Shown here: positions 15,001 to 21,000 of the stretch, piece by piece | How the letters are laid out: each line of letters begins with the position of its first letter | Position numbering within the stretch: position 1 is the first letter of the stretch | Assembly: GCA_039630415.1 (NCBI GenBank) | Contig: JBCNVB010000028.1 | Coordinates: forward strand, 1-29,628 | DNA: 29,628 nucleotides | DNA from: a bacterium | Lineage (GTDB): Bacteria; DRYD01 | Direction of reading: 5' to 3' | Made by a program: the position numbers

Positions 15001-18000
15001 AAGTATCAGTTGTCAGAGCAATAGCTGGTAAAGGAACCCTATCACTACTTATCTTACCCACTAGTTCAGCTGCAAAGTGTTGGCTATCCGCTGCAGAACC
15101 ACCATTTCCCGCCAACATCACCTTCTTACCATTTTTTATACAATTAGTAATGACATATATAACCTTCAACAAATTGGTCATTATCTCTTCGTCTTCAAGA
15201 ATTGCCTGCTTTAATGATATCGAATCTCTGATAATCGACTTGATAGAATTAATCATTCATTAGAACTTGATGTATACCCTAACTTTAGAATTAATTCTAG
15301 TTTGCATGTCCAAAGAAGCACCCAAATCTATAAAAACATTTGGTCTGACAGTGTAAATAGTATTTAATCCAAAACTAATCGATCTATGGTTACCTATTGA
15401 ACTATAATTTCCAAGCTTGCTACTAAAAAAGGAATACGGCGATTGATAAAGGGATTGATTATAAAAGTTAGAAAAACTATAGTTACTCAGTTTATACCCC
15501 TCAAATGTTTCATATTTAAAGTCCAAAAACAAAAACAACTTTTTACTACCAAATTTACCGTTAAGATTTTGATTACTCAATGAATTTATTTTGTTTATGT
15601 CAAAAACAAAATTTTTAGTATAATTCGGGTAATTATTAGAATAATTGAAATAGCTGAATGCATACGAAAAAGACAAAGTTAATATAACTAACCCCAAACT
15701 AATAAGTATCTTCCTCATTTTTATCATTTATAGAATTCACTTCACTATCTTGTTTCCCTTCTATTTTTTGTATCTCTTTTAGCTTAATTATTTTTTGGTT
15801 AATATCAACAAACTGCCCTATTTCCGCAAATTTTTCTACTACCTGGTAATATTTATCAGCAATTATTGAATGTTCCATTTTCATAGCAGATATAATGACG
15901 ATCTGATCTCCTGGACTAACTTGATCATTTATTTTTTCTATCCTACCAGAAAGAGGAGAAACAACAAAGTAATAGTTACCCTCTTTTATTATGTAACTTA
16001 CATCCTCCACTCTAGAATCCAACTCTTCAAATGAACTATAAACTTCAAAAACATTCATATTATTGAATCCATCATAAACATAAAACTTCATACTTTGTTT
16101 TTCCGGAATGATTATAACCTTATAAATACTGTTGTATAGCTTCAAAATAAGTTTTGAGTAATCCTCTTTCTTCTCTACTTTTATCAATTCAAAATCAGTT
16201 TTACTGGTAGGTTGTATCTGACTCTTTGAATTTGAATAGAAATTCTTTATGTACATGGTTACTTACATAAGGACAAGTCAGAAGTTTTTGTAGAAAGTCC
16301 AAAAGTATCTATTTTAAACTTTAATTCAGCAAAGTTAAATTCTTTCATTATTTTTCTAACTTCTTGATGTTTATTAGTAAGTATGAGCATGGTTCCCCCA
16401 CCAGCAGCACCGCAAAGCTTATATCCCCAACAGTATTTATCTATAGCATTACAAAACTCCTCCATATATTGGTTGGTATGATGAGCAGATAAAGTTTTTC
16501 TTATATTCCATTCTTGTTTAACCAAATCACCTACTTTTTCAATATCAGCTAAACCAATAATTTCGTAAATATCCTCGGATATCTCTTGAATTTTCTTTAA
16601 TTTTTGTATTACCTGACTGTCTTTATCTAGTAGAGCCTTAATTACAAGCCAGTTAAGATTACCAGATTCATGCTCAAAACCTGAATGAGCAAGTATAACA
16701 TAACTTTCCAGCTCTTTTATCAATTTCTCAGAATTTATTTTTTCAACTATGAACTTATTTTTATCAAATATGATCGAATTAATCCCGCCATAAATAGCAG
16801 CAATATAATCCTGTTTGCCGGTTAACGTATGAAGAACCCTTGCTTCAATACACGAAGCAAAATCTATCAAATCATATTCATTAAAATGAATCTGATTACC
16901 AACTTTGAGTAGATTTCTAATTATAGTAATAAGAAGAGCAGAAGAGGCTCCCAAACCCGATTTTAACGGAGCCTCATTTAAAGTCGTTATCTTATACCCC
17001 TTGAAATCCTCCATCCTAAAAGCTTTTATAGTTTCATATAATAACCTCGCATCCAAATTATCCCTTATGTTCTCAATATCAGATACCCTGTAGAACTTAC
17101 CAAGATCCTTTATGTTTATCTCTAAAACATCCTCATCTATTTTTTCCAAAATACACTGGCTATATATGCTAATTGATATGTTTATTACTATACTAGGTCC
17201 TAGCAAAACAAAAACAGGATAAATATCGAGTGTACCTCCGCATATATCTATCCTGTTAGGTGCTCTGCTTTCTATCACCATATCTACCATCTACCCCCAT
17301 TAATACCACACTTCAAAATACCCAAAACACATTTATTTTATATTCGATATGTACTTAAAAACCTCCACCGCAAACGTATATAAAGAGTTGGAAATCCAAC
17401 TTGCAACCAAAGCAATTACTATAAATGTAGCAACCAATTTGGGTACAAAACTCAACGTTTGTTCTTGCACCTGAGTAACAGCCTGAAGCAAACTTATAAC
17501 CAAACCTACTATCATCGAAGTTAACAACACAGGAGCAGATAATACAACTATCAAATACATTGCCTGAGTTACAAAATTCATAATATCAAACGCATTCATT
17601 GGTAACTCCTAATCAATCCCTCAGTTATCAACTTCCACCCATCTATACTTACAAATAATAACAGCTTAAACGGCAATGACACAACCATCGGAGACATCAT
17701 AAACATCCCCATAGCCATAAGAACCGATCCAACTATCATGTCTATTACTAAAAATGGCAAATATATCAAAAAACCTATGATAAATGCAGCCTTTAGCTCA
17801 GATAAAAGATAAGCAGGTATCAAAACCTGTAAAGGTATATCCTCAGGCTTTTCAGGCTTCTTTATCTTGGCATACTGTAAGAAAAATGTAATATCTTCGG
17901 GTTTAGTATGCTTAAACATAAACTTTTTATATATAGCAGCCGATCTACTTATGAACTCTTCCTGCGTTATTTTTCTTTCTAAATAAGGTTGCAAAGCATT

Positions 18001-21000
18001 CTGATTTATTTCCGTCAAAACAGGATTCAATATGTACAGCGTTACAAAAAAAGAAAAAGCTATTATTACCTGGTTTGGAGGTGTCTGCTGAGTTCCCATC
18101 GCTGACCTTAACATCGAAAAAACTATAACCACCCTAACATAGGGAGTCATCATTATCAAAATGTAAGGCGCTAAAGACAGTACAGTAACTAAACCTAAAG
18201 CTTTCAAAGGAGCAGCCAATGCATCCGTACTTTTGGTATCCTTAAACTGAACAGTAACATTTGGTAAATCTATTTTCGGCATCTCAGCTCCCCAACCAAT
18301 TAACACTATAAACAATAAAAATATAAATACCCCAATTGTAAACAACATCTTATCACCTCACTACTCCTTCCTACTTAATTCATTGAAATCAAATTCTTTA
18401 AGTAAAGTAATCATATTGTCCGCTACACCTATCATTAAAACTTTATTCCCTACCTTGACAAATACTATACCCTTATTCGGAGCTATATAAATCCTATCAA
18501 TAATTTCTGATATTTTGATACCTCCGGGATACTGCACTCTGTTAACAAATCTAAGAATAAAATATCCAATTGCTCCAAGAATCAGTGCATAGAAAACAAA
18601 TAACAAGCCCAATTGAAATAATTCCATATTCTATTTGACAATCTCTGTTATTCTTATTCCATAATTTTCGTTAACAGCAATAACTTCTCCTTTAGCTATA
18701 ATCTTTCCATTAACTAGAATATCGACAGGTTCTCCAGCAAGTTTATCCAATTCCACTACAGCTCCCACAGCCAATTTTAAAACATCTTTAACCAACATTT
18801 TGGTTCTGCCTATCTCAACTGTAACAGTTAGTGGAATATCTTGCAATAGATCAAGATTTGATTCGGCTGAGCTCGGAACATTGGTTTTTTCTAATTGGGG
18901 TAAGTTAAAAGGCTTTACAAAACTATCCTTGTCACTCATTACATACTCCCTCCTCTATGAATACTCTTCAGCTTCTTCCTCACTTATCAGCCTGGTAATT
19001 TTGACACCTATCTTTTTACCTACCATTCCTATCGTTCCCAAAAATTTTGTTTTACCCTCAACCTTAATTTTAACTTCATCCCCAATTTTGTTATCCAAAG
19101 CTATGATATCACCTACTTCGAGATTTAACAAATCCCCAAAAAGAACCTCTGTTTTACCTAATTCAACAACTAACTCAACCTTACTAAGACTCAGATTTTT
19201 CTCACTCAAAATCTTAGTCTGATCTTTCAAAATTTTATTAAGTATATCCGGATTGACAGAAGTAGATATCACACTTTTTTGAGCTGGAACTAATTCTCTT
19301 AAATAATTGAATGGCAGTATAAAGTTAACCATCGATTCAATCATTTCAACTTTCATACTAAAATTCACTTTAGTAATGTTTGCAGTATAAGGTATAACCA
19401 AAGCCAAAGCAGCTTCAGAAGAAACTTTCTCAAGTTTGAGAAAACCCAGCTTTTTATTCTCCTGGGCTGAAATAGTATTAACTAACTTATTGTAGATCTT
19501 TACAAATTCTTCAACAAAGAAAGTCGTAAACAAATATATTTCAAGCTTAGTAAATTCTCTAATTTTGGATGAAACTTCCCCCTTCCCTCCCAGCAAAAGA
19601 TTTAAAAATATGAAAACCACGTAAGGATCAACAATAACAACAGATTTAGGATACACAGTTAAACTATCTTCAATGTCAAATCTCACTATCAAACTCGGGT
19701 TAGGAATAAAATCAATGAACTCAGAAAATTGCAAAACCTCAACAGACGAAAGTTCAAGCACCATCTTTCTCTGGATAATTTCAGATAAAGAAATGGATAA
19801 CTGTTCAAAAAAATCCTTAAAGAAACCCTGAATAAATTTACTCTCGGACGCCGTAAATTGAGCTTTGGTTATTGAAAAACTAGATCCCGCATCAAACTTG
19901 CCTATACTTTTTGAACCATATTTCTCAAAAGGATTTTGCCTCATGTGAAAATATTTTCTCCTATATTAATTTCTTTACTCCCATTCATATCACCTTTATT
20001 ACCAACTTTTTACAACTTTTTAAAAAAATTCACTTAAACTAAACTAACCTAAACATTAGCAAAAAATAAAGACCAAAAACTACAATGGGAGGAAAATAAA
20101 AATGAATAGTATCTCTACAAGTATTGTACCAATAAAAACTAGAACCGACTTATCCCCCCAAGACATACTCAAAATAGATTTCTCTAAGATAGATAACTGT
20201 CTAGAGCACGCACTATTACCGTTCAATGACGCTTTTATACTGTCAAAAATTACTGAAAAGTTAAAACATAAGGAACATGCTCAAATACAAGGTACCTTTG
20301 CAAATCTACCTATAAAACTCGTTATCAAAGGTATAAACACCTCTACCTTACAAATACAAGGTAAAATAGGTAATAACGAAATCAATTCTAGCATAATATT
20401 TATGCAATCAGAAAATATGCCTTTTCATAAAAAACGAAGTCATGTTAAAAATATCGATCAAAACCTAATGCTCAATTCCTCTTACATTGAAGATTACCAA
20501 GGAAATGGAAGCCAAAATATATCCTCAGTATTACTAGCCGACTATAGTCAAAATATACCATACAGCCAATTCACATTAACATACGATCCTCAAAGCGAAA
20601 AAAGCTTTTATAAAGTCAAAAATCAACAAAATCAACACTTAGTCGAAGCAACCTACTCATCCCTTGTTACTAGCCACCCCACAAAAACAGTACAAACACA
20701 CCTACTCATGCAAGTAGATTCAAAAAAACAAAATAAACTACACGTCAAAGGCAAAATCATTCAAGAAAACCAAGAATGGATCATAAACTACAAAATAGAA
20801 TAAAACCACACTTGAAACCCTATAAGTACCTTTTTTGCAACTCAAGCAGATATTTAGAGGGTATGTAATTTAGTTTCCTAAATGCTAAACCAAAATAATT
20901 GAGCTGAGCAATTTGTTCAGTACAAATTGTTAAATCTATTGCTTTGTCCAAATTATTAGAAAAAACAACCAATCCATGGTTTCTCATTAAAACCACTGCC

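Follow-up and report, generated by a model that had tools for sequence, protein, structure and literature searches.

A fliMNOPQ operon within a reduced, probably non-rotating flagellar apparatus in a bacterial lineage from hot springs

Flagellar apparatuses that have lost the filament while keeping the export machinery have been described in Buchnera aphidicola and in Lysobacter. According to the excerpts of PMC8109811 used for this comparison, the basal bodies of Buchnera, an insect endosymbiont, have lost flagellin and motA/motB with the export-gate, MS-ring, rod and C-ring genes intact; Buchnera keeps FlgH/FlgI, FlgD and FlgK (the last two in the pea-aphid symbiont) and often sheds FliI and hook genes, and repurposing for type III secretion, with no known cargo, has been proposed. 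Lysobacter, which is free-living and without flagella, has lost fliC, fliD, flgK/L and motA/B together with fliG, fliM, flgB and fliE, and has a working flagellar export apparatus that still secretes FlgD. A further parallel is the injectisome, in which a flagellum-derived export core is combined with a length-controlled hollow distal tube and a FliM/FliN-type platform, without rotation. For the Calescamantes, in turn, flagellar motility was inferred from core genes alone (Colman et al., 2016). The gene set described here, from a lineage reported in the literature from hot-spring communities, is a reduced flagellum akin to the Buchnera and Lysobacter kind, with a different retained subset, and its fliMNOPQ operon is best read, with a probability of about 0.55, as part of a non-rotating flagellar apparatus kept lineage-wide for type III export.

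The window, that is, the whole stretch of DNA analysed, comprises 29,628 nt of contig JBCNVB010000028.1 (assembly GCA_039630415.1, genome G000), and close homologues carry the source label Candidatus Calescibacterium. The lineage sample consisted of 11 genomes including G000, 5 of which were used for some of the profile searches. All 11 belong to one order, which is the entire phylum as sampled, and since they are mutually related they do not count as independent samples; their completeness is 71-90%, and the absences reported below rest on such assemblies. An FlhA-based search for related loci returned distant flagellated bacteria only.

Five back-to-back ORFs on the minus strand, at 17333..19944, constitute an intact fliM-fliN-fliO-fliP-fliQ operon, and their Pfam and TIGR matches bear out the gene assignment made for this interval in the preliminary description (Table 1). 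FliM combines a FliM middle domain with a FliN-like C-terminal domain and lacks the N-terminal CheY-binding peptide; against TIGR01397 it reached 119.2 bits, well below the cut-off of 219.6, and the match starts at profile position 43. FliO, encoded at a position conserved in two relatives (L090 and L091), likewise stays below the cut-off of TIGR03500 (46.5 against 55.25 bits), and FliP, which passes the flagellar fliP model, falls short of the injectisome model yscR (SctR; 191.6 bits, cut-off 208.6). The fliP and fliQ frames overlap by 4 bases. Identity to the relatives amounts to 74 and 56% for FliM and, in L090 and L091, to 90 and 80% for FliN and 90 and 83% for FliQ; the five-gene block is preserved in L091 despite different genes on both flanks. 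Synonymous sites of the operon are saturated (pS 0.67-0.85), and pN ranges from 0.06 to 0.27, at or below the pN of the housekeeping neighbours; for fliN, pN was 0.071 and pS 0.85. The operon is thus under purifying selection. A scan for promoters and terminators stayed at chance level, with 16 promoter-like sites against 14.4 expected.

Table 1. Coordinates and assignments of the retained flagellar genes of G000
Feature	Position	Strand	Product or members	Profile support
fliM	18955..19944	-	C-ring protein, 329 aa	PF02154 E 2.1e-16; PF01052 E 1.3e-21
fliN	18631..18939	-	C-ring / sorting-platform protein, 102 aa	PF01052 E 9.9e-27; TIGR02480 109.1 bits (cut-off 84.05)
fliO	18361..18627	-	Flagellum-specific export-gate assembly protein, 88 aa	PF04347 E 4.6e-9, 36.7 bits (cut-off 22)
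fliP	17596..18348	-	Export-gate pore subunit, 250 aa	PF00813 E 5.3e-76; TIGR01103 253.1 bits (cut-off 217.45)
fliQ	17333..17599	-	Export-gate subunit, 88 aa	PF01313 E 6e-28; TIGR01402 98 bits (cut-off 88.9)
Other flagellar loci	C3 21072-21836; C5 129227-130450; C12 5034-8337; C12 74787-76403; C18 37067-38137; C18 79978-82812; C24 10215-10997; C26 17284-20563			
Export gate			FlhA, FlhB, FliO, FliP, FliQ, FliR	
ATPase complex			FliH, FliI, FliJ	
MS ring			FliF	
C ring			FliG, FliM, FliN	
Complete rod			FliE, FlgB, FlgC, FlgF, FlgG, FlgJ-N-like cap, lytic transglycosylase	
Hook-related			FliK-like ruler; 271-aa FlgE-type protein without D2	Flg_hook E 1.2e-8 (FliK-like)

The remaining flagellar genes of G000 lie at the eight other loci already located in the preliminary description, which had also counted nine scattered loci and twenty genes; the loci stand, while our count gives 22 genes, five in the operon and 17 elsewhere. 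Every retained part is encoded by an intact gene that is under purifying selection. G000 has the complete flagellar type III export set, FliH/FliI/FliJ included; the Pfam E-values range from 4.6e-9 (FliO) to 4.2e-228 (FlhA), and FliI has a Walker A motif (GSGVGKST). Equivalog cut-offs were passed by FliP, FliQ, FliN, FlgB, FlgC, FliE and FliJ, whereas the rotor and switch proteins FliG (82.9 of 226.7 bits) and FliF (91.2 of 129.75), like FliM, stayed far below theirs. Across the 11 genomes, Flg_bbr_C was detected in 11, FliP in 10 and FliG_C in 9. Small ORFs 5' of fliG were conserved within genus g1 only. The dispersal over nine loci, together with an erosion of motor motifs that has gone further in family f1 than in G010 (family f2), might be expected of a decaying relic without present function. 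This explanation is nevertheless very hard to credit: the flagellar set is common to three genera at 56-92% identity, pN is far below pS, and no frame disruption was seen in the flagellar genes examined. Stops flagged within the FlhB match in both G005 and G010 are assumed to precede the actual start.

Profile searches for the parts that turn such a core into a swimming organelle gave a uniform picture. In none of the 11 genomes did Flagellin_N, MotA_ExbB, FlgD, FlgI, MCPsignal or CheD yield a match over the cut-off, the whole MotA/ExbB/TolQ family being absent, and in none of the 5 genomes searched were Flagellin_C, MotB_plug, FlgH, FliD_N, CheW, FliS or FlgM found; FlgK had no match over the cut-off in the same number of genomes, and its sole matches were the termini of rod proteins. 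FliD_C exceeded the cut-off in 1 of 5 genomes, in a coiled-coil repeat ORF of G003 that reached 28.1 bits only when summed and that was also the best match to MCPsignal. For the filament with its junction and cap, the hook cap, the stator, the L/P rings and chemoreceptor signalling, the tested genomes (11 or 5) thus gave no hit scoring as a true family member, in agreement with the losses of flagellin, FliD, FlgK, FlgD, FlgH/I, MotA/B and MCPs listed in the preliminary description. That text placed them across the order, which holds, and in this sample the order is the whole phylum. A 240-aa lipoprotein encoded after fliJ was considered as an L-ring stand-in and rejected, as in genus g2 its gene travels with a Na/Ca exchanger gene and not with fliJ.

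Since no filament, stator or chemotaxis genes were found, swimming is most likely not possible. An ordinary swimming flagellum whose missing genes are unassembled, unbinned or too divergent for the profiles has nonetheless to be weighed, given genomes that are 71-90% complete, flagellin genes that can assemble poorly, a deep-branching lineage whose retained proteins, for instance FliG and FliM, are very divergent, and the motility inferred by Colman et al. (2016). This reading is quite unlikely, however: about a dozen separate families are missing from every tested genome, whereas FliP, FliG and the rod genes occur in 9-11 of 11; Pfam still picks up even the most divergent of the retained proteins, with E-values of about 1e-8 or lower, the missing MotA relatives include ExbB and TolQ, and an independent erosion of FliG and FliM fits real loss. 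The absent families and this erosion together support the earlier assertion that the structure is not a swimming motor, contrary to the published inference, which does exist as cited.

The erosion concerns motor-specific features, which FliG and FliM have lost. In FliG, we take K264, D288 and R297 to be torque-helix charges facing MotA. With residues numbered through a match to the Salmonella chain 8umd_B, five stator-facing charged positions were compared in nine FliGs of the lineage: all nine have V, I, T or Q at the R281-equivalent (R in 85 of 142 representatives) and S or T at the R297-equivalent, eight have K or R at the D288-equivalent, and the K264- and D289-equivalents are kept throughout. 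The preliminary claim that FliG has lost the conserved charges of its stator-facing helix is thus correct for R281 and R297 and largely so for D288, and overstated for the other two. Roles of R281 and D289 towards MotA are described in the excerpt of PMC4030992 used here. The EHPQR motif is cut to E alone in 8/9 sequences, whereas P, Q and R are present in 106, 118 and 115 of 124 representatives, and the ARM_C region is a linker of 37-62 aa in which S, T, P and N abound; residues 211-260 form no helix in the structure model and have block-mean pLDDT values of 41-50. FliG-N, FliG-M and FliG-C are still recognisable, and the C-terminal six-helix domain is kept. In FliM, the CheY-binding motif LSQxEVDALL, found in 7/7 canonical proteins, occurs in 0/9 of the lineage. 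The FlhB autocleavage motif NPTH has become NPVH or NPIH in 5/5 genomes of family f1, which may weigh against an export role, while G010 keeps NPTH, an EHPQR-like motif and ARM_C, all three of which f1 has lost. These more canonical motifs of G010, together with the presence of FliK, FliM/FliN and the FliG C-terminal domain, disfavour the notion of a primitive, "pre-motility" flagellum.

An adaptor role of FliG finds some support in a model of the FliM-middle/FliG-middle complex, which scored 0.85, against 0.01 for the best of 3 controls, with runs sharing at least 96% of contacts and a partner pLDDT of at least 91. Of 157 solved complexes, 116 attain this mark, as do 2 of 215 mismatched pairs; since our own alignments went into the model, these counts apply only roughly. 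As like complexes have been solved (e.g., 4fhr), this pass may reflect likeness only. The retained FliG C-terminal domain and 2/5 charged positions could also serve a rotary or moving device with non-homologous stators and a non-flagellin filament, of which a coiled-coil repeat gene that varies in length, located in genus g2 between the FliK-like and FlgE-type genes, might encode an axial or secreted part. Such a device is quite unlikely, as BLASTP gave no clear equivalent of that gene in G000 (best E 0.015), the MotA_ExbB and MotB_plug searches gave no stator-like family member, and ARM_C, EHPQR and the R281-equivalent are lost.

The 271-aa protein, put forward in the preliminary description as a possible minimal hook, passes the FlgEFG_subfam cut-off, and its sequences from two genera share 84-92% identity. 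Outside the lineage, the proteins closest to it are 393-440 aa long, contain an FlgE_D2 domain and are in some cases named FlgE by their source; in the alignment, the D2 block is missing from the 271-aa protein. The gene directly follows the FliK-like gene in two genera and is separated from it by one ORF in the third. A Foldseek search with the structure model gave no separation, rod-length and hook-length chains matching about equally. Most likely, then, the protein is an FlgE that lacks D2, and the lineage probably has a hook stub. In model species, hook polymerisation needs FlgD, and the stub remains uncertain because FlgD was not found. The extra ORF of g2, which occupies the usual flgD position, was rejected as FlgD, being a coiled-coil repeat protein.

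Set against the described systems, the lineage shares with Buchnera the losses and the retained core. The L/P rings, which Buchnera retains in the excerpts cited above, are missing here (FlgI 0/11, FlgH 0/5), as are FlgD (0/11) and FlgK (0/5), whereas FliH/FliI/FliJ, FliK and the FlgE-type protein are kept. The likeness to Lysobacter covers the free-living habit, the lost filament, cap, junction and stator genes and the kept export-apparatus genes; unlike Lysobacter, the lineage has the C ring and the whole rod and is missing FlgD. The parallel with the injectisome would lie in the export core, a length-controlled distal tube, the FliM/FliN-type platform and the lack of rotation; the gate score of FliP, flagellar and not SctR, and the flagellum-specific FliO, FliE, FlgB/C/F/G, FliG and FlgE-type protein indicate that the apparatus is not an injectisome. 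Compared with the motors of Thermotoga maritima and Aquifex aeolicus (FliG chains 1lkv and 3hjl), the export-gate, ring, rod and ATPase families are the same, but filament, junction, caps, stators and chemotaxis genes are missing, FliG is without ARM_C, EHPQR and the R281/R297-type charges, FliM is without the CheY-binding peptide, and FlhB has NPVH.

Under the export reading, the apparatus would assemble by type III export without rotation, FliG would be no more than an adaptor between FliF and FliM/FliN, the C ring would be a sorting platform, and the rod would continue, through the D2-less FlgE-type protein and the FliK-like ruler, into a short hook stub, the whole being kept for export of some cargo or as a needed envelope conduit. 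With neither L/P rings nor any known channel in the outer membrane, the rod-hook structure may reach no further than the periplasm, which counts against an export role because Sec and Tat already deliver proteins there. None of the searches for FliD, FlgK, FliS and FlgM brought up a candidate for a cargo, a chaperone or a late substrate. A self-assembling envelope structure without its own cargo (serving as an anchor, as a landmark for adhesion or polarity, or as a signal at the surface), in which export only builds the structure, would accord with this result; for the basal bodies of Buchnera, a role as surface signal has been put forward (excerpts of PMC8109811), and FliK, together with the strongly conserved FlgE-type protein, suggests a length-controlled structure. 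Such a structure has no obvious need for the conserved FliH/FliI/FliJ and the full C ring, and we regard it as rather unlikely, although the present data do not tell it apart from the export reading. A host-associated secretion device, an idea suggested by an ankyrin protein and the small size of the genome, was dropped in view of the hot-spring placement of the lineage.

The apparatus corrects the published trait call of flagellar motility for the Calescamantes; calls of this kind, made from core genes alone, occur often where uncultured lineages are described from their genomes. With it comes a further case of a filament-less flagellar core under purifying selection, this one free-living and phylum-wide. 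Its retained subset is distinct from those of Buchnera and Lysobacter, in that it includes the C ring, the full rod, the ruler and the hook-type protein but has lost the L/P rings and hook cap. It may also serve as a natural experiment separating the FliG features for assembly from those for torque: the N-terminal, middle and C-terminal helical domains are kept, whereas the EHPQR motif, ARM_C and the R281/R297-type charges would be dispensable. The findings bear on the origin of secretion systems from flagella. Tentatively, a deep-branching hot-spring phylum might have turned the flagellum into a non-rotating type III organelle, with the rod and a FliK-measured D2-less stub as conduit, the C ring as sorting platform and FliG as adaptor; this would be a second flagellum-to-secretion route beside the injectisome, and the erosion from f2 to f1 would be a record of the transition.

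Five tightly packed open reading frames, all on the minus strand, make up the flagellar operon that the preliminary description had placed at positions 17333-19944 of the window, and Pfam and NCBIfam profiles identify them as FliM, FliN, FliO, FliP and FliQ (see table). They are surrounded by housekeeping genes (BamA, H+-pyrophosphatase, IF-3, alanine racemase, a GmhA-type isomerase and a GHMP kinase), and a promoter and terminator scan returned no more than the chance level. The five-gene block was also found in two relatives, with identities for FliM, FliN, FliO, FliP and FliQ of 74, 90, 73, 86 and 90% at locus L090, and of 56, 80, 61, 76 and 83% at locus L091, where the flanks differ on both sides. 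In the operon, pS is saturated (0.67-0.85) compared with a pN of 0.06-0.27, which is similar to or below that of neighbouring genes (GHMP kinase, 0.143; GmhA, 0.177). The protein encoded divergently from fliM also lies beside fliM at L090 (44% identity), but not at L091. Elsewhere in the window, tandem nuclease-fusion paralogues belong to a family of which the genome has four copies or more.

The genome (1.40 Mb, 32% G+C, completeness 89.24%, contamination 1.65%) carries 22 flagellar genes over nine loci, the eight loci outside the window having held on re-examination by profile matches. These encode the export-gate proteins FliR, FlhB and FlhA, together with FliH, FliI, FliJ, FliG, FliF, FliE, FlgC, FlgB (TIGR01396, 67.2 bits, cut-off 59.05) and a 257-aa FlgF (186.9 bits, cut-off 178.5). 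Also present are a 247-aa FlgG-like protein (218.6 bits, below the cut-off of 252.75), a 103-aa protein resembling the FlgJ N-terminus (E 2.4e-7), a 203-aa SLT transglycosylase whose top NCBIfam match is the Borrelia-type flagellar lytic transglycosylase, a 255-aa FliK-like protein (Flg_hook, E 1.2e-8) and a 271-aa FlgE/F/G-family protein. All three genera of the lineage keep the SLT, FliK-like and 271-aa genes clustered. flgF and flgG adjoin in genus g2 and in G010 of family f2, and lie on separate contigs in genus g1. An ankyrin-repeat protein encoded near fliR is unusual in a hot-spring bacterium.

Features and their positions. Positions without prefix refer to the window; C-numbers are other contigs of the same genome, and L-numbers are loci compared.
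Feature	Position	Strand	Description
FliM	within 17333-19944	-	329 aa; PF02154 E 2.1e-16 plus FliN-type C-terminal domain
FliN	within 17333-19944	-	102 aa; TIGR02480 109.1 bits, cut-off 84.05
FliO	within 17333-19944	-	88 aa; PF04347 E 4.6e-9
FliP	within 17333-19944	-	250 aa; TIGR01103 253.1 bits, cut-off 217.45
FliQ	within 17333-19944	-	88 aa; TIGR01402 98 bits, cut-off 88.9
Protein divergent from fliM	20102-20803	+	233 aa; no family match
Tandem paralogues	337-1851; 1900-3420	+; +	predicted AAA-ATPase and PD-(D/E)XK nuclease fusion (PF09820 + PF08011)
Further copies of these	C12 16-1545; 2020-3318
BamA	3481-5517
FliA-like sigma factor	C3 52908-53522	-	example from this genome
FliG	L006:3068-4135	+	residues 73-120 (FliG-N to FliG-M stretch) predicted disordered, pLDDT 43-56
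FlhB C-terminal domain alone	L126:5202-5594	+	G010, 131 aa; TIGR00789 67.5 bits, below cut-off; directly upstream of flgF-flgG-flgJN
Weak homologue of this	C23 21620-21949
Ankyrin-repeat protein	C24 8637-9137; L008:1641-2138	- (C24)	166 aa; Ank_4 E 1.4e-39; two genes upstream of fliR
Coiled-coil gene, genus g2	L121:1808-2650	-	between FliK-like and FlgE-type genes
Coiled-coil gene, genus g2	L122:4778-5503	-	between FliK-like and FlgE-type genes
Coiled-coil gene, genus g2	L123:4057-4665	-	between FliK-like and FlgE-type genes
Coiled-coil paralogue	L100:973-1800	-	275 aa, elsewhere in G003; source of weak FliD_C and MCPsignal matches

Close homologues of the 271-aa protein (92% identity) and of FliM (77%) are source-labelled Candidatus Calescibacterium sp., which places the lineage in the Calescibacterota (Calescamantes, EM19). 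In the available text of Colman et al., both Calescamantes populations are considered "capable of flagellar-mediated motility" and cheY and cheD are reported, whereas CheD had no match over the cut-off in any of the 11 genomes analysed here. A 2025 study of the same springs (PMC11696919) credits a convincing flagellar gene set, in its available text, to Thermocrinis only. Among the accessible parts of the papers searched, none was found to report that the phylum lacks flagellin and stator genes.

The 11 genomes are all those available for the order, class and phylum (three genera, two families; 71-90% complete), and absence was defined as no match over the curated profile cut-off. By this measure the missing parts proposed earlier were indeed missing. 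Flagellin_N, MotA_ExbB, FlgD, FlgI and MCPsignal gave 0/11, with a single 17.2-bit Flagellin_N match in G010, a single 18.2-bit MotA_ExbB match in the relative G002, and sub-threshold MCPsignal matches in four genomes (top 28.5 bits, cut-off 34.6). In a five-genome subset covering all three genera (G000, the genome under study, with G007, G002, G003 and G010), FlgH, MotB_plug, CheW, FliS, FlgM, Flagellin_C and FliD_N were each 0/5, as was FlgK, whose matches were rod protein termini only. FliD_C matched weakly in two of the five, once over the cut-off only by summing neighbouring pieces (28.1 bits); this coiled-coil open reading frame of short repeats in G003, also the top MCPsignal match, was rejected as a true member and read as a coiled-coil cross-match.

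Incompleteness of the assemblies, a caveat attached to the preliminary description, does not explain zeros for so many families, since core genes were recovered from the same genomes (Flg_bbr_C in 11/11, and as many as four members in one genome; FliP in 10/11; FliG_C in 9/11; FlhB in all five further genomes tried) and the misses fell in the least complete ones; the 11 genomes are related and hence not independent samples. No sigma factor in the lineage exceeded the FliA cut-off (189.6). Ten of the 11 genomes encode a FliA-like sigma factor (about 240-275 aa, about 92-116 bits) that spans the full FliA/WhiG model and may represent sigma-28 in diverged form or some other member of group 3. The MotA_ExbB result implies that ExbB and TolQ are lacking too, and Tol-Pal and TonB-type energisers thus seem to be absent from the lineage. 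Nevertheless, BamA is encoded in the window, and a diderm cell is likely.

FliG was aligned to solved FliGs, across the lineage and to representatives from a full-library search, with numbering from the match to Salmonella chain 8umd_B; K264, D288 and R297 are taken by us to be positions with stator-facing roles. The equivalent of R281 is V, I, T or Q in all nine lineage FliGs (R in 85 of 142 representatives), that of R297 is S or T in all nine (R or K in 94/142), and that of D288 is K or R in eight and E in G010 (D or E in 75/142). The equivalents of D289 (D or E in 84/142) and K264 (K or R in 79/142) are kept in 9/9. Functional roles of R281 and D289 are described in the available text of PMC4030992. 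The charge loss proposed earlier was therefore half right, so that the preliminary description, confirmed for the operon, loci and absences, had overstated the FliG detail.

Two changes go beyond that claim. Only the E of the FliM-binding EHPQR motif is left in the eight family f1 FliGs (124 representatives: E 119, H 70, P 106, Q 118, R 115), and ARM_C is replaced in this family by a 37-62-aa linker with 53-68% S/T/P/N/Q/G (representatives' median, 31%). In the FliG model, residues 201-262 lack helix (block-mean pLDDT 41-50 over 211-260) and confidence is high for the N-terminal, middle and C-terminal helical domains. Within the lineage, the stretch of residues 73-120 shows little conservation and differs in length. 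The FliM N-terminal LSQxEVDALL peptide was found in 0/9 lineage FliMs versus 7/7 canonical ones. A complex model of the FliM and FliG middle domains, built with author-made alignments, scored 0.85 versus 0.01 for the top control, a score reached by 116/157 solved complexes and 2/215 mismatched pairs, with contact agreement between runs of at least 96% and partner pLDDT of at least 91; this supports retained binding, but the score may reflect likeness only, since like complexes have been solved. G010 FliG keeps E-D-P-Q and R of EHPQR, and its FlhB has NPTH, compared with NPVH or NPIH in 5/5 family f1 genomes. On these motifs family f2 is nearer the canonical state, which argues for stepwise loss and disfavours a primitive flagellum.

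The 271-aa protein exceeds the FlgEFG_subfam cut-off, and FlgE models match it in an N-terminal and a C-terminal piece; identity is 84-92% between genera g1 and g2, and 52% in g3. Its closest relatives outside the lineage (393-440 aa, 29-38% identity over 38-52% of the query) bear FlgE_D2, several being source-named FlgE. It has the FlgE strands leading into D2, which the two rod paralogues lack, with the D2 block missing. The model (pLDDT 84.5, pTM 0.79; terminal helices and a beta domain) matched rod-length (TMq 0.75-0.82) and hook-length chains (0.74-0.77) about equally in Foldseek, so that the fold cannot by itself settle the matter. Because of its sequence affinity and its location behind the FliK-like gene, the protein is read as a putative FlgE without D2, which may or may not polymerise, no FlgD having been found. 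A 281-aa homologue (P0007, 39% identity, on a 61.7-kb contig) hints that this short form also occurs in a further, more remotely related lineage. Genus g2 alone has, at the place usual for flgD, a coiled-coil protein that consists of short tandem repeats and differs in length (203, 242 and 281 aa); it has no clear counterpart in G000 and could be a secreted substrate or ruler.

As judged from gene content, the genes for a self-assembling type III export core that comes with rings, a rod, a ruler and a hook-type subunit are intact and conserved, and every thrust, torque or steering part is absent. With FliG and FliM eroded as well, we conclude, with a probability of about 0.85, that the apparatus is not a swimming motor, as initially proposed. 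An export organelle is the best explanation and, on balance, a probable one. Buchnera (in the available text) and Lysobacter are known parallels, but the subsets they retain differ from that of this lineage. Such a structure would be non-rotating, with FliG as a FliF-to-FliM adaptor and the C ring plus FliH, FliI and FliJ as a sorting platform. A hook stub would have to cross the outer membrane with L/P rings lacking, and the cargo is hypothetical. The machine would have been retained for a benefit to the cell, either from export by this route or from the conduit that the machine forms.
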